Numbered from the stretch's first letter, positions 45,968-60,920 are shown. The stretch: 64,000 bases of DNA from Eledone cirrhosa (GCA_964016885.1 OZ024747.1:91760001-91824000); one strand, 5' to 3'. Notes: a model not told the origin generated them from the letters alone. Program-made: numbers and translations.

Positions 45968-48900
45968 AATAACAATTTAAAAAAAAACAACAAAAAGAAA
46001 ACCCCGTGACCAAGAATTACCAGGATGGCGGCCGGCGGGGAATAGCCGTGTCTCTAGGGGAGAACGACCCCTCTAGTCTTGGTTGACACTCGTTCTAGAA
46101 GTGGTAACACGAAATGATTACCCCTTGGCGGATAAGGATAAAACGCGACAAAATAAAGTAAATGTCTAATGATAAAATCTCATACCGGTTCGGCCGTCAC
46201 CCGGGTAAAAAAGGGCCGCGTCCCTCAGAGAGGAACCAGACTGGGGTCGAAAAATTAGTTAATGGTTCAAACCTTCCCATCACTTCGGAGCTGGAGACCT
46301 CCCATAACCGGAATACTCCTACTGTTGACCCTCCATGCTCACCACCAAGAAATCCAAAGAAAAAGAGAGAAAAATGGTCAAGGGAAGATAATAAAGAAGT
46401 CCTTGAGGCTTTCTACACTGCCATGTACTACCCATCAAATACATCGAATACAGAACAGACATATATCAACTGGAAAAAGAAACATCCCGAAAACAGAGGC
46501 TATATTGACAGTAACAAACTAGCCGATATACGAAGAAATATTGTAAGAAAATAGTTACTAACTGATATAGAAATTGATCAGATCAAGCTATTAGCACAAA
46601 GTCAGCGAAGGGAAAATGAAACATGTGTCAGTGAAAACGAGGTAAATTGTAACACTTCGAATCCCAGGGTTGGGGCGGAATCACTGGCAACAGAACAAAT
46701 TAAAGAAAGGATCGAAAAAGTGGAGGGAGTGCATGCTCAAGACGAAACTCCAAATGAAAATAATGAGATCGTAAATGATAAAGAAATGAATGAGAATGAA
46801 CTTGCCAACTTGAAGGATGAAATTATGATCGAATGGATGAAAATGAAAGAATCTGACATGGGGCAACGAGACACCCTCCCTAAGATCCAGAACTCCAAAC
46901 AGAACCAAAAGATAATACACAAGACTAACATAATTCTCAAAAACATTATCATCACAAACAAACTAAACATTACTGATTTAAATCATCTCTATTATGCATC
47001 GACTAAAGTCACCACTCACTTATGTGGAGTGAAGATGAAAAAACAAAGGAATTCCCACAAGAAATCTACTTGGCAAGAGAACATCAATCGCCAAATAAAC
47101 CTTCTCCGATCTGACATAGAAATTTTAACAAACTATAAAGTAGGTGAACATGATAAACAAACTAAACTTAGAAAATTGAAAAAAAAGTACAGTATAAAAT
47201 CAACAAGTGACATAGACATGCTGATAGAAATAATCAAGCAAAAAGTGTCGGCCAAAGCTGCTCGTATAAGGCGCTTTGAAAAACGATCTAGATTCTATAG
47301 GGACAATAATATGTTCAAAAACAACCAAAGAAACTTCTACAGAAAAATTGGTAAGTCAACAATAACTGCTAAATCAATACCACCCAAGGAGGAGGTGCAA
47401 GAATTCTGGGAAAAGATCTGGGCCGAAGAAAAAGTTAATAACATACATGCCCCGTGGAGAGACAGACAAATGAAAGATACAGCTCACCTTGAGGAACAAA
47501 TATGGGAAAATATAACAGTTGAACTGTTGCGCTTGGCTCTAAGAAAAACCAGCAAAAGACAAAATACAAAACTTTTGGATAAATGCCTTCACAGAGTCTC
47601 ATGAGCTGTTAGCCCAACTTTACAATGAAATAGTTAAGGAGCCAGAAAAGATACCATCATGGCTAGTTAACGGCATTACATTCCTTCTTCCGAAGAATGA
47701 TGAGACAAACAATCCCAAAAATTACAGACCGATAACTTGCTTGACTACAATGTATAAAATTTTAACATCAGTCCTAACTGAATACACATATGACCACCTG
47801 ATAACAAATGACCTATTTCCCATTGAACAGAAAGGGTGTAAACGAGGCTCATATGGCTGTAAGGATCAGCTTCTGGTTAACAAAATGATACTGGAAGATT
47901 GTCATAATAGACACAAAAATCTATCGATTGCTTGGATAGATTATAAAAAAGCATTCGATAGTTTACCATACAGTTGGATTGAAAAATGTTTAGAGATTTT
48001 CAAAATATCCCCCGTTGTCAGGAGGTTTTTGTCATTCAGTATGAAGACATGCAAAACGACACTCCTTTTGAATAGTGAAACAAAATCACTAGAAGCTGGA
48101 GAAGTTAATATTAATTGTGGAATTTTTCAGGGTGACTCTTTATCACCGCTTTTATTCTGCATCGCATTTATACCATTAAGTAAAATGCTCAATGAAACAA
48201 AATATGGATATAAAGTCTATGACAAAACCATTAATCACTTGTTCTACATGGATGATCTGAAACTATTTGCAAAAAATGATGAACAATTGCAAGGGCTATT
48301 ATCCACTGTGGAGCAGTTCAGTGATGACATTAAAATGGAGTTTGGACTAGATAAATGCGCCAAAGCAACGTTCACCAGAGGAAAGCTGCTGAAGAGTTCA
48401 GACATTAATCTTGATCGGGGTAACGTGATAAGAGAACTTGATCAAGAAAAAACTTACAAATATCTAGGTGTTTGTGAAGGAGACGGAATCAAGCACTCGA
48501 CAATGAGGGAAAGGATAAGGAAGGAGTGTTACCGCAGAGTAAGAGCAATCTTAAGAACGGAATTGAATGTAAGGAATAAGATCGATGCCATAAACACGCT
48601 TGCCATACCAGTAGTAACCTACAGTTACAATGTCATCAACTGGTCAAGCACAGAGATCTGTAGGCTCGATACAAAAATTCTAAAATTCTTAACCATGCAC
48701 AGAATGCATCAGCCTAAGGCAGATATAGATAGAATATATCTCCCTAGGAAAGAAGGAGGACGTGGGTTAATCCAGTTAGACATTGCGTTGAAAACTGCAA
48801 CAATTGGATTATCTACATATCTAAGGGAATCACATGATTGGATGATCAAACTCGTTTTGAAACACGAAAGCATCAAAAGATCATATTCCATTACAAAAGA

Positions 48901-49938
48901 TGCACAAAGATACAGTAATGGACTACAAATTTCAGAAGTCCCATTTACTGCTGAAATGGAAAACACAGAAAAAGCAAAGCAGGTAAAAGTAACTGCAAAG
49001 AAAGAACTGCTACAGAAACTGGCTAAGAAATGGCAAGAAAAGCCTCTGTATGGAAAATACCCAGAGCGAGCTAACAATCCTGATGTTGACAAAACTTTAA
49101 CCCATCAGTGGTTGCCATCCTCTGGACTGAAATCGGAGACTGAAGGACTGATTATATCAGCACAAGATCAGTGTCTGCCAACAAAAAATTACCAAGCCAA
49201 CATAATAAAAAATGGATGCAGCCCATTATGCCGTGTATGCAAAAAACAACCAGAGACCATTGACCATATAATTTCAATGTGCAGTCCTATAGCTCCAACC
49301 GAATACCTAAACAGGCATGACAGAGCTGCTCAATACATACATTGGATAATGTGTAAGCATTTTGACCTGCCCCATCAAAAGAATTGGTGGGAGCATCAAC
49401 CACCTCCCATACTTGAAAAAGATCACATCTCAATCTTGTGGAACTTTAGCATCCAAACAGACCGAAAAATAGATGCAAATAGACCTGATATAATATTGAA
49501 GGACTTTAAAAAGAGGGCATGCCTGCTAATTGATATGTCTGTTCCAATAGACAAGAATGTATCTATAAAAACATTTGAAAAATTGAGCAAGTATAAGGAC
49601 CTGGAGATAGAAATTGGAAAAATGTGGAAATTGAGAACTAAAACAATACCAGTGGTTGTAGGCGCTCTGGGAATGATACCTAAGGTGTCTAATGATTACT
49701 TATCGCAAATCCCAGGAAACCCGCGTATAGGAGAAATACAAAAGATAGTACTAATGGGAACTGCCCATATACTAAGGAAGATTCTGTCAATATAAGTAGA
49801 TCACAAGTCTAAACACTAAAGATGCATGTGTGAGTATGTATGTTCTTTCTTGAACATGGCGGACCTTGTTGTCTCTTGAGGTCACTGGTTGTGACTTGGT
49901 GATAACTCGTATGAACATAAAGCAAGATAAATGCAACT

Positions 49939-49940
<2 letters not shown>
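45968..49940 (+). mobile_element. R4/Dong-clade RLE non-LTR retrotransposon, family A, full-length but inactivated
   Basis: ORF pieces 46162-46554 and 46720-47604 are in frame (stop at 46552). Piece 47741-49795 follows a frameshift near 47553 where the WKSPG motif is deleted. RT GIFQGDSLSP/YMDDLKL, CCHC CRVC..H....C, RLE RHD..RPD..D..K..KY. (TAA)n tail. Confidence 0.93.
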
Positions 49941-49971
<31 letters not shown>

Positions 49972-49975
<4 letters not shown>

Positions 49976-50530
49976 TGGGCAGGGTGATCCACTGGCACCT
50001 GTGCAAAGTAAACAATTTACCACATTCTGAGAAATGGTATGAGCATAGGCCAGAGTCGGTGATGGAGAACAATCAGGTGAAGGTGCTGTGGGATTTTAGG
50101 ATACAGACGGACAAAAAACTGGAACACAATAGACCTGACCTGGTGGTTGTGGACAAAGAAAAAAGATCGTGTCTGATTGTGGATGTGGCCTGCCCGTTCG
50201 ACACGAGAGTGCAAGAGAAGGAGAGGGAGAAAATTAACCGATACCAGGACCTAAAGTGGGAGGTGAAAAGGATTTGGAACTGCCATGAAATCAAAGTGAT
50301 CCCGATTGTCATAGGCGCACTGGGGACTATCTCCAAAAGTTTCCAGGGATGGTTAAAGAAAATCGGCCCCTTCACGCTTTTTGGAACGCTTCAAAAGGCA
50401 TGCTTTCTGGGAACAGCAAGAACCCTCCGATACGTCCTGAATATCTGAGGCTGCAGGTAGTGGCTTGATATTCATTCCAACGGACTTTCCAGTTAACCAA
50501 CATCAATGACTGAGATTCAAGGAATAACAA
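49972..50530 (+). mobile_element. 5'-truncated R4/Dong family B copy
   Basis: 158-aa ORF near-identical to the C-terminus of 51076..54468, plus 3' UTR. Lies between (TAA)n tracts. Confidence 0.95.
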
Positions 50531-50650: not shown

Positions 50651-53600
50651 GACTCAAAAGAAAAAAGAAAAAACAAACAACAAAAGCAGCACAGCAACAA
50701 CAGCAAAAAACGAGAAAAACAAACAGAGAAAAACAAAAACAAAAAAAGAAACCCCCAAAACGTAAAGAAAATAAGAATGAAGAGAGAAGCAGGCGGACGG
50801 ACAGAGAAGAGGGGGTAAAAAGTAAAACTTAAAAAACAAAAACTAAGTCAGACATTCGAATACTACATTACAATGAAACTTATGCTTATTCATTTTTGGG
50901 GCCCTTTCTGCCCGTGTGTTTGTTTGTTTATGTGTGTCCGTATACAGCGTGGTGATAATGCCACACAAGGGCCAAGTGGGATGGCGGATCCACAGATGGC
51001 TATGTAAACATACATTCGCCAATCCTCGATAAGAGTGTTTAAATATCGAACATAAACAGTTCGAATAACGGTGAAATGGAGACTAGAACGTCATGTGACA
51101 GACTCTCACCCAACAGGTGCCCCCTGGCTCAGCAGCAGGAACCTGACTGTCAACCAAATACTGCTGATGTTGGAGGAAGAAGAAGAAGGAAAGGGGCCAG
51201 AACCAACTGGACGAAAGAATTGAATAGAACTGTTATGCAATGCTACCTGAAAAGTAACCCCAAGGAGAGGGGCTACAGGAGACGGATGCATAACATCTGG
51301 AACGAGATTGGTTTATTTAAATTAGATGAACAAAAATTGGCCGGGCAGGCTCGGGTAATAAGAACTAATGGGTGGATAAGCGAGCTGGAACTGGAGGAAC
51401 TGAGCAGAGAGAATGGCTTGGAGATGGCGGGTGTAGTATGCCAGACAAGCGAGCCGGCGGGAAATGAAGGTGAGGAGGTCCTGAGAACGGAGGAACCACC
51501 CGAAGCAGACAATGATCTGAATACTGAGATAAATAATACCTGGAACAGAGATACGGCCACTGAGGAGATGAATGCTGACGGGCTAGGACAAGATTCGGTT
51601 GACATCCTAAATTTAGTGGTAGATGAGTTGAACAATGATAGTGGGAGACCTATGAGCCTAAGATTTGTAGACAGGAAAAAGTTAAAAGAAACAACAGCTA
51701 AGGTAAACAAAGTCATCCCATACCTTGAGGCGAGGAGTCTTCACCAGTGCAACAATATCCTCAAAGCAACAGCAAATACGGTGAGGAAACTACTTGGTAT
51801 AAAAGCGAGAGGAAACAACAGACAAGAAAGAGCAGAGCCGTGGTGGAAGAAGCGACTGAGTGGGCAAATCGGGGAAATGAGAAATGACATAGGAAAGCTT
51901 GAGTCACTACTGAATGGGACACTAAAAAACATAGGCACTAAAAATAGACTGGAAATAAAATACAAAACTAGGAGTAAAAAGCTAAATATTATCATAGAGG
52001 AATTGAAGCAACGCATTGTAGCAAAGAGTGCCAAAATCAGGCGATACGAGAACAGAGTCAGTCAGTATAAACAGAACCGCATGTTCGACAACAACCAGAA
52101 GATGCTGTTTGGACAGCTTGAGGGGAAAGAAAGAGGCAACGACTTGATCCCTGGGGCGGAACAAGCTAAAACATTCTGGAGAGGAATATGTGAGCAGGAT
52201 GTTAGACACAATGCCCAGGCAGGGTGGATTGAGACAGTACAGAGGGAGATCGGTGAGCAGGCACAGCAACAGACTGATTTGAGTATCACAGTTGAAACTC
52301 TTAAGGGGCAAGCCAAAAAACTAACCAACTGGAAATCACCAGGCCCAGATGGTGTGCAGGGGTATTGGATTAAACATTTAACGTCCCTCCACCCGAAGCT
52401 GACGGCCATGTTCAATGACTGCTTGGTGTCGGGTGAGGTGCCAGAGTGGTTGACAAAAGGTACCACAGTTCTGATAATGAAAGACCGAATCAAGGGTAAT
52501 GATGTTACCAACTATAGACCTATCACATGTCTGCCCGTAATGTGGAAACTGTTGACGAGCATTGTGTCTGAGGAAATCTACCATCACCTCCACACAAACA
52601 ACTTGTTGCCGGACGAACAGAAAGGATGCCGAAAGAAGTCACGTGGTACAAAGGACCAGTTGCTTATTGATAAGATGGTAATGGGGAATTGCAGGAGGAG
52701 ACACACTGATCTTGCAATGGGATGGATAGACTACAGAAAGGCATTTGACATGGTGCCTCATTCCTGGATCACCAAAAGCCTGGAGATCTTCAGGGTGGCA
52801 GATAACATCAGACAGTTGCTGGGCAGGAGTATGGGGTCCTGGGAGACAGAGTTGACATCAACTGGAGTATCCTTGGGAAGCGTGAAGATCAAGAGAGGTA
52901 TCTTCCAGGGAGATAGCCTGTCCCCTCTGTTGTTCGTCCTTGCCCTGATGCCCTTGACCATTATGCTGCGAAAAGTGAGAGCAGGATACAAGTTGGGAAG
53001 GGGAGAGCTTACCATCAATCACCTCCTCTTCATGGACGATCTTAAGCTCTTCGGGAAAAGTGAGAAGGAGTTGGATGTGCTTGTTGACACTGTCCGTATT
53101 TTCAGCAGTGATATATGTATGCAGTTTGGTATTGGTAAATGTGGAGTCATTGTGATGAGGAGGGGTAGGTTGAGCAGAAGTAACGGGATCCAGATACCAA
53201 CAGGTGAGATGATAAAGGAAATTGACTCTGAGGAAGGATACAAGTATTTGGGCGTTCTGGAGGCTGATGACATAAAGAACAAAAAAATGAAGGAATTGTT
53301 AAGAACTGAATACATTCGGAGAGTAAGGAGCGTATTGAAGTCACATCTGAACAGCAGAAATGCCATAAGCGCAGTAAATTCCCGAGCTGTGTCTATTATT
53401 AGATACAGTGCGGGAATTCTGAGATGGAATGTTGCTGAACAAAAAGAAATGGATAGGAAGACTAGGAAGCTATTGACTATCTACAACATGTTCCACAAGA
53501 GGAGTGATGTCGATAGACTCTACCTAAGGAGATCTGAGGGTGGAAGAGGTCTTATCAGCATAGAGGACTGTGTTCAGATGGAGAAAAACAACCTATACAA

Positions 53601-54572
53601 ATACGTGACCTATAGTAAGGAGCCAATGCTCAGAGCTGTACTGAAGGAGGGGACAGTAGGCCAGGGGATATCCAAGGAGGAAATAACATCAAGGAGGAAG
53701 AGCAGCCTTAAGGGAAAATCCCTTCATAGTACCTTCTTTGAGAAAACTGAATTTAGAGATCCACAGACATGGAACTGGTTGAGAAGAGGAGACCTCAAAA
53801 AGGCTACAGAAGGAATGCTAATGGCTGCGCAGGAGCAGGCCCTCAAAACGAAGTGGTTGAAGCACCATATCTACAAGGAGGAGGCTAGCCCACTGTGCAG
53901 GATCTGTGGAGAGAGAGAGGAGACTGTGGCTCACATTGTGTCCGAGTGTAAACACCTAGCCCAGACCCACTATAAGGGCTGGAGACACGATGTGATGGGC
54001 AGGGTGATCCACTGGCACCTGTGCAAAGTAAACAATCTACCACATTCTGAGAAATGGTATGAGCATAGGCCAGAGGCGGTGATGGAGAACAGTCAGGTGA
54101 AGGTGCTGTGGGATTTTAGGATACAGACGGACAAAAAACTGGAACACAATAGACCTGACCTGGTGGTTGTGGACAAAGAAAAAAGATCGTGCCTGATTGT
54201 GGATGTGGCCTGCCCGTTCGACACGAGAGTGCAAGAGAAGGAGAGGGAGAAAATTAACCGATACCAGGACCTAAAGTGGGAGGTGAAAAGGATTTGGAAC
54301 TGCCATGAAGTCAAAGTTATCCCGATTGTCATAGGCGCACTGGGGACTATCTCCAAAGGTTTCCAGGGATGGTTAAAGAAAATCGGCCCCTTAACGCTTT
54401 ATGGAACGCTTCAAAAGGCATGCTTGCTTGGAACGGCACGAACCCTCCGATACGTCCTGAATATCTGAGGCTGCAGGTAGTGGCTTGATATTCAATCCAA
54501 CGGACTTTCCAGTTAACCAACATCAATGACTGAGATTCAAGGAATAACAATAACAATAATAATAATAATAAT
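50651..54572 (+). mobile_element. Full-length R4/Dong-clade non-LTR retrotransposon, family B
   Basis: A-rich leader, structured 5' UTR, single intact ORF, ~75-bp 3' UTR and (TAA)n tail. Confidence 0.95.
51076..54468 (+). CDS. Reverse transcriptase / CCHC knuckle / restriction-like endonuclease polyprotein (R4/Dong type), 1130 aa
   Basis: WKSPGPDG, YRPITCL, DYRKAFD, GIFQGDSLSP, HLLFMDDLKLF, YKYLG, CRICGEREETVAHIVSEC, RHD, RPDLVV..DVACP..KINRYQDL. Confidence 0.96.
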   Translation: METRTSCDRLSPNRCPLAQQQEPDCQPNTADVGGRRRRKGARTNWTKELNRTVMQCYLKSNPKERGYRRRMHNIWNEIGLFKLDEQKLAGQARVIRTNGWISELELEELSRENGLEMAGVVCQTSEPAGNEGEEVLRTEEPPEADNDLNTEINNTWNRDTATEEMNADGLGQDSVDILNLVVDELNNDSGRPMSLRFVDRKKLKETTAKVNKVIPYLEARSLHQCNNILKATANTVRKLLGIKARGNNRQERAEPWWKKRLSGQIGEMRNDIGKLESLLNGTLKNIGTKNRLEIKYKTRSKKLNIIIEELKQRIVAKSAKIRRYENRVSQYKQNRMFDNNQKMLFGQLEGKERGNDLIPGAEQAKTFWRGICEQDVRHNAQAGWIETVQREIGEQAQQQTDLSITVETLKGQAKKLTNWKSPGPDGVQGYWIKHLTSLHPKLTAMFNDCLVSGEVPEWLTKGTTVLIMKDRIKGNDVTNYRPITCLPVMWKLLTSIVSEEIYHHLHTNNLLPDEQKGCRKKSRGTKDQLLIDKMVMGNCRRRHTDLAMGWIDYRKAFDMVPHSWITKSLEIFRVADNIRQLLGRSMGSWETELTSTGVSLGSVKIKRGIFQGDSLSPLLFVLALMPLTIMLRKVRAGYKLGRGELTINHLLFMDDLKLFGKSEKELDVLVDTVRIFSSDICMQFGIGKCGVIVMRRGRLSRSNGIQIPTGEMIKEIDSEEGYKYLGVLEADDIKNKKMKELLRTEYIRRVRSVLKSHLNSRNAISAVNSRAVSIIRYSAGILRWNVAEQKEMDRKTRKLLTIYNMFHKRSDVDRLYLRRSEGGRGLISIEDCVQMEKNNLYKYVTYSKEPMLRAVLKEGTVGQGISKEEITSRRKSSLKGKSLHSTFFEKTEFRDPQTWNWLRRGDLKKATEGMLMAAQEQALKTKWLKHHIYKEEASPLCRICGEREETVAHIVSECKHLAQTHYKGWRHDVMGRVIHWHLCKVNNLPHSEKWYEHRPEAVMENSQVKVLWDFRIQTDKKLEHNRPDLVVVDKEKRSCLIVDVACPFDTRVQEKEREKINRYQDLKWEVKRIWNCHEVKVIPIVIGALGTISKGFQGWLKKIGPLTLYGTLQKACLLGTARTLRYVLNI

Positions 54573-54814
54573 GTTTTCTTTATTAACCACAAGGGTTCAC
54601 ATAAAGTAGACATTAAGGACAGTACAGGACAATACAGGACGGTACAAATGGGCATTTCTGCGTGTAAAAAACAGAGGTTGAAATAAAATAACAAAGAAAA
54701 ATTCCCCAATAGGGGGGAGACTTCCAAGGGACATTTGTGGAGAAAGCCCATTAAAAGACCACAGTGGCCCTGACCACCAGGGCAAGCGCCCTCTCCCAGT
54801 TTTCCACCTTTAAT

Positions 54815-57800
54815 TTACAGACACATACTCAGAGAAGGCCCATTCATTCGGGCCATACTTGCTTCTCTCACCCATCTTTCAACAAAATGCTGGGAAGAGA
54901 GCACTTCCCTCTCTACCCTGATTTTCCTTTTCAAATGAAATTTGAAAAAGTTAATCAGGGCATCACCGAAGAGGTAAGTGCTCGTCTTCAGCCCTTTCAA
55001 ACGTGTCCACCATACTATCTCTTTCGCCATGGCCACCAGACAGATAAAAACTGCCTGCACTTCCAGGCTAAAGGAAGGGGGCGGGGCAATCCTCACGATG
55101 GACTCAGCTGATAGCTGGATCCGTCCTACACGTGACAGCAGGTGTTCGAGATAAACCCACAAGTCAGCAATGCTCGGACACTGGACGAGTGCGTGCAGGA
55201 CGGTTTCGTGGCCCTGCGCGCATCTCGGACATGCCCGGCTGACGGCACCTCCATGCCTGTAGAGTTTATCCCGAACTGGCAAAGCTCCTCGGTAGCACTG
55301 CCAGGCCAGGGATTTCTGGAAGTTGTCCATAGGCCCCGGCCTGAAAGTCCTTCCGAAGAGATTGGCTAGTTGATTTTCGTCGACGCCTAGAGTTTCTCCA
55401 AGTACGTCGTCGCTCTTCCCCTCCACTAATCCCCTATAGAACGCCAAGGTGGAGTTTCCACCGATCACATTGCCCGATTGGTCGAGGGCTGTGAGCGCCT
55501 GAAGACATTCCAGTCTCCAAGCGCTCCCTCTCGGTCTTCGCTTGACCCAGGACTGCAGCTCCGTCAAGGAGACGAGCTGGGGAAAAACGTGTCTTGCAAA
55601 CGGCGACCACACCTGATCACCGTCGAGGAAGAGGTGGAGATGTCGTAGCCTGAGCGCGTGTCTGCGCATCATCAGCCACGGCATGCCCAGCCCTCCACGT
55701 AGCGGGTGTTGACAGCAGATGGACCGCCTGACCATCGGAGCGCGTCCCTTCCACAAGAAGCGAAAGAGCAAACGCTCCAGCGCAGTCAGGCGGGGCTTCG
55801 GACAAGGTACGACGGTCAGGCGGTAGTAGATGACGGATGCGATGTACGCATTCGCCACCTCCTCTCGACCTTTCAGGGATAGCTTCCTCTCGGCCCATTT
55901 CTGGGTGAGAGAAGCCACCCTGCTCGTCACCTCGTCCCAGTTTTTGTTCGTCTGGAGGTCTGGACCGAACCAGACCCCTAGCAATTTAACCGGTCCGTCC
56001 GTCCAGCGCCCGACGACGCTGTTGGACGGCATGGACCTGCCTCTCCAGGTGCCGAGCTGCAGGCCCACTGACTTTTCCTGGTTGATCATTGCTCCTGTCA
56101 CCGCTTCGTATTCTCTTAGTGTAGTGCCGATCGCCTCGATGTGTTTGGCGTTCGACACCACTACGGTGACATCGTCGGCATATGCTGACACGGATCTTCC
56201 GCATCCTAGTTCGCGCGGGACCCCCCTCAACGTCTCCAGTTTGTGCAGTAATGGCTCGAGAGTCAATACGTACAATAGGGACGAGAGGGGACATCCTTGG
56301 CGGACCGAGCGCATGATGTTGAACGGTTCCGAAAGGTGACCGTTCACTCTCACTACAGAGCAGATGTCGCTGTGCATGGCAGCGATCCAGCCTCTGAAGA
56401 CGGGCCCAAAGCCAGCCGCCCTCAGGACTGCCGCTAGGTAACGATGGTCGACCCTATCGAAGGCTTTCGACTGATCTAAATTGATCAAAGACCCACCCGT
56501 GCCAGGTTCCCTAGCTACCCTCTCTACGATGTATCGCATGAGGTGGAGGTTGTCGTGGATGGATCTGTCGGGAATGGCGCATGTCTGTGCCTCTCCCACC
56601 AGACCACCAACGACAAGCGCCAACCTCTTTGCTAGCACCTTGGCCAAAATCTTGAACTCTGTGTTTAGCAGAGTTATGGGCCTAAAATTATCTATGTTAT
56701 CCCCCTTGTTCGGATCCTTTCTCAGCAGCGCCACAGCTCCTCGGCTCACAGAGCTGGGAATTCTCCCGTTCTGTTGCCAGTTGCAGTAGACGTCCGCCAA
56801 GAGGCCTCCGAACAAGTTTGGCATTTGTACGTAAAGTTCATAGGGCAGACCATCCAAACCAGGCGATTTACCCCTTGTGCAACTAGTCATTGCATCCCGT
56901 ACTTCAGCGGTTGTTATCGGCTTTTCGCAACACTCCGCCTCAGTGGCCGAAAGCCGCGGCAGTCCGTCGAGGTAGACACTAAAGTCCATCCCTCGATCCG
57001 GCCCGCCACTGCCCCCGAACAGTTGAGCGAAGTGTCGCTGAAAAGCTTCACACATTTGCCCGGGATCGAGTAGCATGCGCCCGTCGAAGTCCACCAAAGA
57101 CCGGATCGTGGCTTTGTTGCCACGACGCGCCTCCGCCACTCGGGCCCATTGAACGGCTTTCGTCCCCTCGTGTCTGAGAGCACGCACCCTTGCTCTGACA
57201 ACGCAGCCTTCGTGCTTTGCATTGAAGAATTGGTCAAGGGCCAATTTCGCCGCAAGTACGTCGGTCGCGATGCCTTTGCTAAGCGCCTCATCTAATTTTC
57301 TAACTAATTCTCCCTCTGCTCTATTTTTCTCTATTGCTAAAGTCTTACTAAACCTAATGGACTCTATTCTAATTGCTCTTTTCAGAGCAAACCACCAGTT
57401 GTTGTTGACGATGGCCCCCGTCAACGCCCGCTTAACTAGTTCGCTAATCCGGTCTCTGTAGGCCTTGCGCGCTGGTAAGGACGCGTTTAGCTTCCAGTAG
57501 CCGGGTCCTCGTCTATGAAGCCTATCTAAGTCAAGCACACAGATCACGAATTTGTGGTCCGTGTAGCTGACTATCTTGAATTGTGGACAGGCTATGCTAG
57601 ACCTATCTATTTCCCTACAAAATACTCTATCTAGATATGATCTGGATGACCCTATGCGATTTGTCCAAGTCCACATTGGTACATTCGGGAAATCCATTCG
57701 GTACCTGTCAGACAGTTCAAAACGTCTGAGCAGGTTGGTGAGACTCTTGCACCCTCCTTCCCTATCCACTAATCCCACACAATCCCAGCGTGCATCTAAG

Positions 57801-58234
57801 ATCCCGTTCCAGTCGCCCACTAACACTAAAGAGCGGGACGTTCCAAGAAAGGTCTCCAGACGCCGGAAGAAATCAGGCCGCCCTGCTCCTGTCGGGGCAT
57901 AGACGGCCACTAACCTGAAAGCTTGCCCGTCTCCGCTGGTCACGTCCAGCACCACCATCTTACCTTCTGGGTCCAGGAATATGGCCCGTATGGCAAGATC
58001 CAAACCTCTCCGAAAAAGCACAGCAACTCCTCCCCCCGATCCCGGACGGCTGGGAGATGCGTACACATCGTAGCCGCCGAAGATCGGTGCGAAATCCTGC
58101 GCTTCTGAGATTCTGGTCTCGCTGCTGGCCACTACATCTATGTTTAGTGACCTGAGGTCGTTGAGCAGGTGGCCCTGCTTCCATGACGACCCCAAGCCAC
58201 GCACATTTATGCTGCCTATTCTGAGTGAGGTCAT
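54815..58234 (-). CDS. ORF2: APE endonuclease + reverse transcriptase + C-terminal Cys-rich knuckle, 1139 aa
   Basis: IGSINVRG, SET, VYAP, GDWN, SYLDR, TDH (APE). KSPGLDG, FRPITLLN, DQSKAFD, VRQGCPLS, AYADD (RT). CPRC..ETVLHALVQC. Confidence 0.96.
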   Translation of the reverse strand: MTSLRIGSINVRGLGSSWKQGHLLNDLRSLNIDVVASSETRISEAQDFAPIFGGYDVYASPSRPGSGGGVAVLFRRGLDLAIRAIFLDPEGKMVVLDVTSGDGQAFRLVAVYAPTGAGRPDFFRRLETFLGTSRSLVLVGDWNGILDARWDCVGLVDREGGCKSLTNLLRRFELSDRYRMDFPNVPMWTWTNRIGSSRSYLDRVFCREIDRSSIACPQFKIVSYTDHKFVICVLDLDRLHRRGPGYWKLNASLPARKAYRDRISELVKRALTGAIVNNNWWFALKRAIRIESIRFSKTLAIEKNRAEGELVRKLDEALSKGIATDVLAAKLALDQFFNAKHEGCVVRARVRALRHEGTKAVQWARVAEARRGNKATIRSLVDFDGRMLLDPGQMCEAFQRHFAQLFGGSGGPDRGMDFSVYLDGLPRLSATEAECCEKPITTAEVRDAMTSCTRGKSPGLDGLPYELYVQMPNLFGGLLADVYCNWQQNGRIPSSVSRGAVALLRKDPNKGDNIDNFRPITLLNTEFKILAKVLAKRLALVVGGLVGEAQTCAIPDRSIHDNLHLMRYIVERVAREPGTGGSLINLDQSKAFDRVDHRYLAAVLRAAGFGPVFRGWIAAMHSDICSVVRVNGHLSEPFNIMRSVRQGCPLSSLLYVLTLEPLLHKLETLRGVPRELGCGRSVSAYADDVTVVVSNAKHIEAIGTTLREYEAVTGAMINQEKSVGLQLGTWRGRSMPSNSVVGRWTDGPVKLLGVWFGPDLQTNKNWDEVTSRVASLTQKWAERKLSLKGREEVANAYIASVIYYRLTVVPCPKPRLTALERLLFRFLWKGRAPMVRRSICCQHPLRGGLGMPWLMMRRHALRLRHLHLFLDGDQVWSPFARHVFPQLVSLTELQSWVKRRPRGSAWRLECLQALTALDQSGNVIGGNSTLAFYRGLVEGKSDDVLGETLGVDENQLANLFGRTFRPGPMDNFQKSLAWQCYRGALPVRDKLYRHGGAVSRACPRCAQGHETVLHALVQCPSIADLWVYLEHLLSRVGRIQLSAESIVRIAPPPSFSLEVQAVFICLVAMAKEIVWWTRLKGLKTSTYLFGDALINFFKFHLKRKIRVEREVLSSQHFVERWVREASMARMNGPSLSMCL

Positions 58235-58268
58235 GTTGAAAAGGAGTGGAAAAGATGGGAAAGACCAC

Positions 58269-60224
58269 TTACCTTACTTCTCGTAGGGGAAGGACGGTTT
58301 TTCCATCCTTTTCACTGCTTGTGGCCTCCTCAGGAAGGATGTCCTTATAAATCCTCCTGGAGAGTGCTTGTCGGAAGTCTCCGATGTCTTTGGGGAATTT
58401 TTGTTTTAGTGTCATGTACGTTTTCTGTGTGATGCGAGTGATTTGTATGTGTGTAGGTGGTGTGAATTTTGGGGTTGTTGTGTAGTCTTTTTCTGTGATG
58501 CTGGTGTTGTGTTGGATGTAGTGTAATAATTGCTTGTTGTTCAAATTTAATGCTGTGTAGTGTGTATCGTTTTGGTTGTTTTGTTTTGTTTGCGTTTGTT
58601 GTGGGTTTGTTTCTGTTTCGCATTTTGGTGACTTTTGTGGTGTAGGTGATGGTGGTATTGGAGTTAATGATGGTGATGGTGTTGGTGTTTGGGTTGATGG
58701 GGTTGGTGATGCTGGTGTGGATGGTGGCATATCTGTCCTAACTTTTTTGTTTCTTAGTTTATTTGTTTCCCTCTGTGTTTTGTTTTTGGAGGGAGAAGGA
58801 AGAGAATTTTTTCTTTTTTGGTTTCTTTTTTTTTCCGGATATCGTTTCCCACTCCTCGTCGTCACAATCTGTCTCCAGTTGTGATAGGCCGGGGAGTGGA
58901 AAATCCTCCACAGCCGTTAGTTTTGGTTGTGGTGTGGTGGATGGTGTAGGCGCTGGTGCTAGTTCTGAAGCGTTGGGTGGTGGTGGTATTGGTTTTGCTG
59001 GTGGTGGTAGTGGTGTTGGTTTTGCTACTGTTGCTGGGGTTGTTGCTGTTATAGTTGCTTCTGTTGTTGCTGCTACAGTTGTTGCTGCCATCTCTGCTAC
59101 TGGTGGTGTTGATGGTTGTGTCACTGGGGTGGGTAGGAGAGGTGGCCTCAACCTTTTAGCCTGAGGGCAGAAAGCCCTTAGGTGGGTTCCTTCACCACAA
59201 ACGACACACCTAGGTCTTCTGCCCTCGACAATTACCGTGAGGTGGCTGCCGTCAGTGGGGTCTATTACCTCTGGGATCTCCTCAATGCTTTTTTGGTCCG
59301 CTTGGATCAGGAGCTCCATCCCAGATCCGGACCAGTTTTCCTGCTTTTCTTTTGCTACTGCTATTATTTTCGTGTTGGCTTCGATGCCGGCGAGGACAGC
59401 CGCTATTAGCCAGGGAATTTCGATGGCCGGTGGAACGTGGGTCACCCTGATCTTTACGAGTCTCTGGCCACAATAGCTTGGGACGAGTGTGAGGTCGTCA
59501 CTTTTTAATGGGGCCATGGAGTGTTCTCTAGCCTCCTCTGGTGTTTCAAAGAACACATCCACGGTTCCATACTTTTGCCCACGTCTGATGTGGGTTTTTC
59601 TTGCCCACACATGTCCCAAAGCTTTTTGGATTTGGGACTCGGATGCCCGTTCCACTCGGCGCGATTTTACATTTATTGTTCTATACGACACGGTGTACAG
59701 GCGCCGATGCTCCATTTTATTAGGTGGGGGTGTGAGGCTGACCCTGTACCCATCTTTCTTTACCATTTGTTTGGCATTTTCTAAATCTTCTTGAGTTACG
59801 GTAAATGCTTCGAATTGTTTTGCTACTCTGGCGAAACTGAGGGGGGGTTTATAATGTCATTGTTGTTGTTGTTGCTATCGTTAATATTAATTTTAGTTTC
59901 AGTTGTGGTGGTGGTGACGTCAGTCGTCTTTGGTGGGGAAGAGTCCATTTTGCTTGATTTCATTTTGACATCACGAGTTAATTTATTTTTTTCTTCTTTT
60001 GTTTCTGTTGTCGCGGTGGTGGTGGTGGTGGAGGCTTTAACACCTGCAGTCATTGGTAATGGTGGGAAATGAATGTCTGCCTGAGACAAATTTAAAATAT
60101 TGCTACTGCTTATATTTTTTTTTGTGTTGGCAAACGTAGTAACATTTACAATGGTGGTGTCGGTGTGAGGTGTTATTTTGTGAGGAAGGCTTTCAGCTGC
60201 TTCGTGCAGAGGTGAAGTAGCCAT
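58269..60224 (-). CDS. ORF1 (gag-like, CCHC zinc knuckle), split by two frameshifts at homopolymer runs
   Basis: Pieces 59823-60224, 58759-59766 and 58269-58865. CVVCGEGTHLRAFC knuckle, Pro/Thr-rich linker, W..ISGKK basic patch. Frame changes near the G run at ~59840 and the T run at ~58826-58834. Confidence 0.8.
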
Positions 60225-60433
60225 TTTTTTTCAAAGAAATTTTTTGATAATAATAAAAGTTAAAATTTTGGGCACAAGGCCCCAATCTTTTTAGGTGTCC
60301 TTTTCGGAAAACAATGTATGTGTGCTTATAAACAGTTAACAATAAAATTTTCCATAAATGGCAATTTTTAAACAAACGGAAATAATAAACCTTTGCGGAG
60401 CTCACGATAATACGATTTTCTACGTAGGTCGCC

Positions 60434-60523
<90 letters not shown>

Positions 60524-60541
60524 AAGAAGAAGAAGAAGAAG
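60434..60541. repeat. (TAA)n followed by (AAG)n
   Basis: Seen directly in the sequence. Confidence 0.95.
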
Positions 60542-60546
60542 ACAAT

Positions 60547-60920
60547 ATGCCTGACAAAGTGGTTTTTGACAAGGAAAAAAGATCGTGTCTGATTGTAGAT
60601 GTAGCCTGCCCCTTTGACACAAGAGTGCAAGAAAAGGAGAAGGAGAAAATTAGCCGATACCAGGAGTTAAAAAGGATTTGGGACTGTCATGAGATCAAGG
60701 TTGTCTCGACTGTCATAGGAGCACTAGGTACTATCTCAAAGAGTTTTCAAGGATGGTTAAAGAACATTAGTCCAGCTCCTTTTTTGGAACACTTCAAAAG
60801 GCATGCTTGCTGGGAACAGCAACAGCACTCCGATACGTCCTGAATATGTGAGGCTGCAGGTAGCAGCTTGATGTTCATTTGAACAAACTTTCCAGTTAAG
60901 TAACATCAATGACTGAGACA
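60547..60920 (+). mobile_element. Older 5'-truncated R4/Dong family B-related copy
   Basis: PD.VV.DKEKRSCLIVDVACPFDTRV.., with small deletions and a frameshift. Same 3' UTR. Confidence 0.9.

Follow-up and report, generated by a model that had tools for sequence, protein, structure and literature searches.

Microsatellite-targeting Tx1 retrotransposons such as Kibi, Koshi and crocodilian Tx1 have two ORFs, with an ORF2 that joins an endonuclease (APE), a reverse transcriptase (RT) and a zinc finger, and an ORF1 that carries a zinc knuckle (PMC4494074, PMC5203782). Splice donors at the end of a structural-protein region are known from the Arabidopsis Ty1/copia element EVD (Oberlin 2017, PMC5580714), an LTR element with one ORF, where the donor near the GAG end is conserved, U1 binds it and premature termination is blocked. 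EVD also has a conserved acceptor, and its splicing is demonstrated and coupled to early termination; donor quality matters more than acceptor quality, and U1, which allows splicing as well, has a role independent of it (PMC5580714). Elsewhere, a retained donor motif was found to block export (PMC4380460). In Ogre LTR elements, a stop-containing spacer between two ORFs (274 bp on average) is the proposed intron, and its partial splicing, which has been demonstrated, fuses the two frames (PMC6317226); the idea of fusion by splicing is thus already known in LTR elements. Among LINEs, human L1 RNA contains functional splice sites, and the spliced RNAs leave retrocopies through cis-preference, one form (SpIRE97/622) amounting to about 1.8% of full-length copies (PMC5860796). 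The SpIRE events considered from that source either stay inside the 5' UTR or connect it with ORF1; none is at the ORF1 stop. Reinitiation has been reported in SART1 and L1 (PMC5972666). The way in which a single RNA of a two-ORF LINE yields abundant ORF1 but little ORF2 has been worked out for only a few elements.

The element described here shares the two-ORF layout, domain content and microsatellite insertion of Kibi, Koshi and crocodilian Tx1, but it targets (ATT)n. Its relative family D inserts into (TCTA)n instead (flanks of L192 and L309), a target switch within the clade. A donor at the end of the structural ORF is shared with EVD; a conserved acceptor and a coupled early poly(A) site are not, and the present ORF1, known from sequence alone, has its own stop. 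The donor would be closest in its working to that of EVD, yet we do not class the two together because no acceptor is conserved. Compared with Ogre, the candidate intron is 52 nt, its phase varies and ORF2 has its own AUG. SpIREs are present in the human genome, whereas no spliced copies were found for the present element. In the available text of the literature outside subscription journals and Repbase reports, no Tx1 element was described as carrying a donor or intron where its ORF1 ends.

The window, a 64,000-nt stretch of the 3.0-Gb genome of Eledone cirrhosa (GCA_964016885.1 OZ024747.1:91760001-91824000), contains a full-length copy of this element, which we assign to family A (Table 1). 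A sequence search with the family A junction region returned 1,149 candidates in the genome.

Table 1. Features of the Tx1-like element in the window
Feature	Position	Strand	Remark
Full-length Tx1-like non-LTR retrotransposon (family A)	54573..60433	-	Between (ATT)n runs
ORF1, with CX2CX4HX4C zinc knuckle at 59167-59208	58269..60224	-	Frameshifts near 59845 and 58835
Predicted 8-bp hairpin, last ORF1 codons	58290..58310	-	Stable hairpin there in 8/10 representatives
Donor-like motif AAG/GTAAGT overlapping the ORF1 stop	58267..58275	-	G/GTRAKT in families A-E
Inter-ORF spacer, pyrimidine-rich, CAAC directly before ATG	58235..58268	-	74-81% C/T in 10/10 representatives
CAG, proposed acceptor, across ORF2 Leu4-Arg5 codons	58221..58223	-	In frame only in phase-2 families
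ORF2, intact, 1139 aa: APE endonuclease, reverse transcriptase, zf-RVT	54815..58234	-	
3' UTR CAG, strong acceptor-like, preceded by T-rich tract	54658..54660	-	A, A2, E; not B, C, D
AATAAA polyadenylation signal, then (ATT)n tail	54579..54584	-	

Membership of the L1/Tx1 group is shown by ORF2, which has an N-terminal APE domain and an RT (Pfam matches Exo_endo_phos, RVT_1 and zf-RVT) and whose best solved-structure match is L1 ORF2p (E 1e-52, vs 5e-21 for R2). ORF1 has the build of a Type I ORF1 in its CCHC knuckle, present in A, B and D, with atlas leads to zf-CCHC and ZCCHC3-type RNA-binding clusters (scores 0.90-0.93); the RRM half of that type is a lead only, as ORF1 gave no Pfam RRM match. 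Preference for a target sequence is evident from the 12 fetched loci, six of which have (ATT)n runs close to either end (L185, L186, L187, L190, L195 and L188, the run of L188 sitting one unit over in a tandem array); the remaining six are truncated or belong to family D. We use the label Tx1-like provisionally, on structure and on the sequence-only reading of the window rather than on an RT comparison with a named Tx1 reference. No homologue of ORF1 was found among proteins of near lengths, and no relatives in the viral contigs searched.

The neighbourhood holds other LINEs as well. Single-ORF LINEs and fragments, putatively R4/Dong-like, lie on the plus strand at 46555-49795, 49921-50448, 51043-54468 and 60496-60843 of the window; they have RT and a C-terminal motif that may be a restriction-like endonuclease. 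The intact copy among them (1141 aa) houses the Tx1-like element in its (TAA)n tail. At another locus (G000:C1:423365218-423418123), ten family B units stand in tandem with a period of about 5.84 kb, and pairs of family A and of family D also occur at a spacing of about 5.9 kb.

At the junction of the two ORFs in the window copy, the GT of the donor-like motif AAG/GTAAGT (slash at the would-be exon border) occupies 58272-58271 on the minus strand, and the ORF1 stop TAA 58271-58269. The ORF2 ATG begins at 58234, and the AG of the CTCAG/A on the acceptor side lies at 58222-58221. The segment from donor to CAG (58272-58221) is 52 nt long with phase 2 at both ends, and its excision keeps ORF2 in frame; the spacer is 81% C/T. 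The sequence-only reading had proposed just such an intron, with a U2 donor whose GT overlaps the TAA, a pyrimidine spacer and a CAG, in phase 2 throughout, and it placed each of these correctly. Its caveat that no branch point was clear also stands. The sole yTnAy lies 43 nt after the donor (+43 of 52). Branch points of U2-type introns are expected about 18-40 nt before the AG, so this one is too near the AG and family A has no usable branch point, although the GT donor consensus is matched. The relaxed donor motif occurs 27 times in 128,000 window positions and the exact 9-mer once, whereas the acceptor is less remarkable, since its AG belongs to the ORF2 Arg5 codon common to A, B and D. We note that ORF1 of the window copy carries frameshifts of 1 nt (the one near 59845) and 2 nt (the one near 58835) relative to the natural copy L185, whose ORF1 has 665 aa. 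In four further natural copies (L004, L020, L026, L030), the frame is open for at least 549 aa up to LPLREVR and the stop, which identifies this as the true ORF1 end.

The 30 best family A copies are identical from donor to CAG except for one base in L002, a near-identity that makes them uninformative on selection. N-terminal sequences of distant ORF2 proteins, used as genome queries to reach older lineages, led to families B, C, D and E, and ten representatives of families A-E were compared, with subfamilies including A2, B3, C2, D1 and D2. ORF2 identity is 75% between A and B, 69% between A and D, and 71% between B and D, while ORF1 of these families is 28-33% identical over the alignable part. 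Fully intact copies are L187 in B and L310-L312 in D1. Codons for the same residue are identical across A, B and D in 294 of 674 cases (44%), and four-fold sites are 43-54% identical between deep families. More remote relatives (P0002-P0011) are 39-46% identical.

The donor motif proved to be conserved well beyond family A and tied to the ORF1 stop across changes of frame. All ten representatives have G/GTRAKT at the stop, which lies at +1 or +5 from the GT, followed 37-53 nt after the GT by the ORF2 ATG, with a pyrimidine tract between. Among 133 distinct loci picked by ORF2 protein similarity alone, 116 have GGTRAKT 20-60 nt before the ATG and none has it in a control window 80 nt further upstream; most of the 17 loci without the motif look like point mutants or deletions of it. 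As the loci are related, these counts represent five families, not 116 events. Variants of the donor are GTGAGT in D and GTAATT in E, both within the donor consensus. In a donor-anchored alignment, the flanking columns mostly have 0.1-0.4 pairwise identity, a few 0.6; the motif columns served as the anchor, so their own identity is partly by construction. The end of ORF1 is duplicated in A2, where the new stop alone has kept the donor; in E, the donor was apparently re-formed 4 nt downstream, as judged from an unanchored alignment. What is directly established, then, is the motif, its position, its retention through frame shifts and a local duplication, and the lack of spliced retrocopies described below. 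Among 19 distant L1/Tx1 loci from metagenomes, inspected by eye, one has a donor at the ORF1 stop, and the feature is therefore clade-specific. In that locus, L133 (26% identity), ORF1 ends with G/GTGAG-TAA about 90 nt upstream of the ORF2 match (at 2020), which may be chance. Separately, donor-like sites occur in 5' UTRs about 25-45 nt from the 5' end (60385-60393 in the window; L187, L190, L313): the site is GTGAGT in B, GTAAGT in L190 and L313, weak in A, and not evident in L314 or D.

Acceptors and reading phase showed no comparable conservation. Phase 1 was found in B, C, C2 and D1 and phase 2 in A, A2, E and D2, the latter in two separate branches of a midpoint-rooted tree (A/A2/E, and D2 separately). 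The sequence-only reading had offered conservation of donor, acceptor and phase among relatives as a check on its intron; phase differs among families, and only in three of ten representatives (A, A2, D2) would joining the donor to the next AG yield a product in frame. That AG is only 28-37 nt from the donor in B, B3, D1 and D2. Family C has CTCAG as in A, but splicing there would lead to a stop after one codon. Some in-frame AG does lie within the first ORF2 codons in 9/10 representatives, AAG and GAG among them, which is expected because the codons for R-I/V-G-S offer AGs in two phases. Family A probably owes its in-frame CAG incidentally to a shift of one base close to the end of ORF1 in the A/A2/E branch, and a predicted product that is a fusion in A but a stop in its sisters suggests that the splice product is of no importance. 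Further downstream, no acceptor is convincingly conserved: the 3' UTR CAG is confined to A, A2 and E (scored by a crude pyrimidine count), and an AG at ORF2 +83, found in 9/10 representatives, where it would give an intron of 117-136 nt, has four identical codons, which is within the 44% background. The spacer of L310-L312 (D) contains a textbook acceptor, with TTAAC, a T-rich tract and CAG 7 nt before the ORF2 ATG; it is only 34 nt after the donor and is used by no retrocopy.

A spliced fusion RNA would encode its own RT, so that retrocopies are expected under cis-preference; because it presupposes cis-preference and splicing in the germ line, the test has little force for products without ORF2. 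The exact junction lacking the 52 nt had no match in the genome. At least 3,307 A-type copies include the ORF1 end, of which 3,255 keep the GT and 52 differ from it at +2, and not one of these 52 begins with A, as a joined form would. Thirty of them, when read, were point mutants, small indels and one microhomology deletion; the other 22 were judged from the matched letters alone, and none starts with the predicted exon. Retrocopies lacking exactly these nucleotides, the other check that the sequence-only reading had named, are thus absent among at least 3,307 copies (upper 95% bound about 0.1%). In family B, 552 copies are unspliced and two are point mutants. Acceptor-side searches in A, B and D found no spliced retrocopy, and searches with other predicted exon starts found none either, including the +83 and 3' UTR starts in A (all 8 hits of one search and 10 of 15 of another were judged by matched letters, none with the predicted exon). 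Several candidates were rejected. L206 joins ORF1 position -602 to the CAG but has an extra G, and microhomology marks at least two more of its joins; L227 is a deletion at a microhomology, L197 is unrelated DNA at control level, and three D-pattern hits fall at an unrelated ORF1 site of another family. An ORF2-only RNA made from a 5' UTR donor was also considered, with 9, 1 and 8 hits at the A, B and D acceptors, none of them spliced. In contigs from four runs of unrecorded kind, the 52-nt skip is seen in 0 of the 15 joints listed; 1,132 further joints exist, so that this sample speaks neither for nor against splicing.

Our leading explanation, which we hold tentatively and rate a little short of probable, is that the donor at the ORF1 stop serves as a regulatory site to which U1 binds while most of the RNA is left unspliced, ORF2 being translated from its own AUG. 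U1 snRNP would bind the motif and either protect the A-rich RNA from premature 3' end formation or limit its export, and so set the amount of full-length RNA; ribosomes would stop at the end of ORF1, cross the pyrimidine spacer and start ORF2 by reinitiation. We infer that U1 likely binds the motif, and we infer likewise its effect on 3' ends or export. In its favour, the donor persists in 10/10 representatives despite phase changes and a divergent ORF1, with no spliced retrocopy in A, B or D. Against it stand the unsaturated divergence, possible recombination between families, the shared protein ending discussed below and the lack of poly(A) hexamers downstream of the donor (within 600 nt, 0/10 representatives). 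Upstream, within 600 nt, hexamers occur in 8/10 representatives (absent in D1 and C_L294), a point in favour of the explanation, but only a mild excess of 16 vs about 11 expected. A donor motif fixed at the ORF1 stop of five young, high-copy families offers a precise and mutable handle on ORF1 and ORF2 output, and suggests that LINEs, too, acquired the kind of U1-based control seen in plant copia elements. Host splicing, moreover, could be captured by these donors, of which a 3-Gb genome holds thousands.

A considerably less likely possibility is that tissue-dependent splicing sets the ratio of ORF1 to ORF2, with the ORF2 AUG lost in the phase-1 families, a fusion made in A, and the unspliced RNA as the sole copied template. 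With its ratio set by the spliceosome, a non-LTR element would then have a switch like that of copia or Ogre.

The motif could also lack any function in RNA and be kept by descent, the stop codon and a terminal Gly-Lys/Glu, in which case the element is an ordinary Tx1-like LINE; we consider this unlikely. Divergence between the families is unsaturated, and on synonymous sites neutral retention of six donor positions could reach about 0.7% (0.436^6). TAA or TGA supplies part of the motif, distant relatives mostly lack it, and the deep lineages B, C and D1 all end in Gly, Lys or Glu and the stop, a common ending through which protein constraint may contribute. However, the ORF1 residues upstream are not conserved, and GGT and AAG or GAG are kept at the motif although AAA outnumbers AAG about 2-3 to 1 in ORF1. 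The motif has also outlasted two phase switches, besides its apparent re-formation in E.

Splicing of the donor to a downstream AG could instead yield an ORF1-only mRNA, like the GAG-only RNA of copia (PMC5580714), which we regard as unlikely too, and slightly more doubtful than plain descent. A phase-1 splice at the Arg5 AG or the +83 AG would take out the ORF2 AUG and bring ORF1 to a stop within 1-7 codons, with immediate stops predicted for B, C and D1, and such an RNA would make no RT in cis, so that the missing retrocopies in B and D are expected. The +83 AG, with its longer intron, is shared by nearly all representatives. But the same acceptors are in frame in A, A2 and D2, and since A has the most copies of the families counted, the outcome varies among them; the identical +83 codons are not unusual, the 3' UTR acceptor is restricted to one branch, and no A retrocopy starts with either exon.

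Less probable again is that the likeness to a donor is superficial and that a hairpin, the motif and the pyrimidine tract together signal termination-reinitiation or RNP assembly for ORF2; caliciviral TURBS and SART1 offer precedents (PMC5972666). A stable hairpin, of 8-10 bp in most families, is predicted 8-45 nt upstream of the donor in 8/10 representatives (p 0.003-0.02 vs shuffles). Across 12 A, C and E sequences, 92% of hairpin cells are paired, a level reached in 5/500 shuffles, and the AUG is preceded by (A/C)AAC or CAGC in all families. Frameshifting or readthrough into ORF2 was rejected, since the frame of ORF2 relative to ORF1 differs among families, a point in favour of this reading. 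On the other side, D has a weak hairpin or none (p 0.12, 0.92), the B stem lies in another register, and only two pairs have changed on both sides (60/500 shuffles as high), so covariation is a hint at most. The UGGGA core is absent from the hairpin regions, Rfam gave no match near the gathering score, and the motif variants conform to the donor consensus. Pairing of the pyrimidine tract with the donor, which could mask it, was no better than with shuffled spacers except in C and C2 (MFE p 0.013 and 0/300 shuffles). Spacers of family C (L093, L078, L296, L275) contain a near-perfect 9-nt complement of their own donor, with a hairpin predicted over it.

Removal of the 52 nt to give an ORF1-ORF2 fusion is very improbable: its perfect donor, a CAG that is the first AG after the tract and in frame in A and A2 (52 and 53 nt), the in-frame AGs of the other families and the Ogre precedent (PMC6317226) are outweighed by a retrocopy bound far under the human SpIRE97/622 value, the stop that the same CAG gives in C, in-frame AGs that follow from codons, and a spacer much shorter than that of Ogre with no usable branch point. 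Of the mechanism put forward in the sequence-only reading, the donor is real, conserved and testable, and the fusion intron is unlikely.

The families may themselves recombine. L206 is a mosaic in which a family-B-like ORF2, an A2-type ORF1 and A-type ORF2 pieces are joined at microhomologies, as template switching would give. Long, near-identical nucleotide runs common to A, B and D also occur at ORF2 codons 524-533, 560-572 and 895-903, which suggests recombination between families or elements acting at the RNA level.
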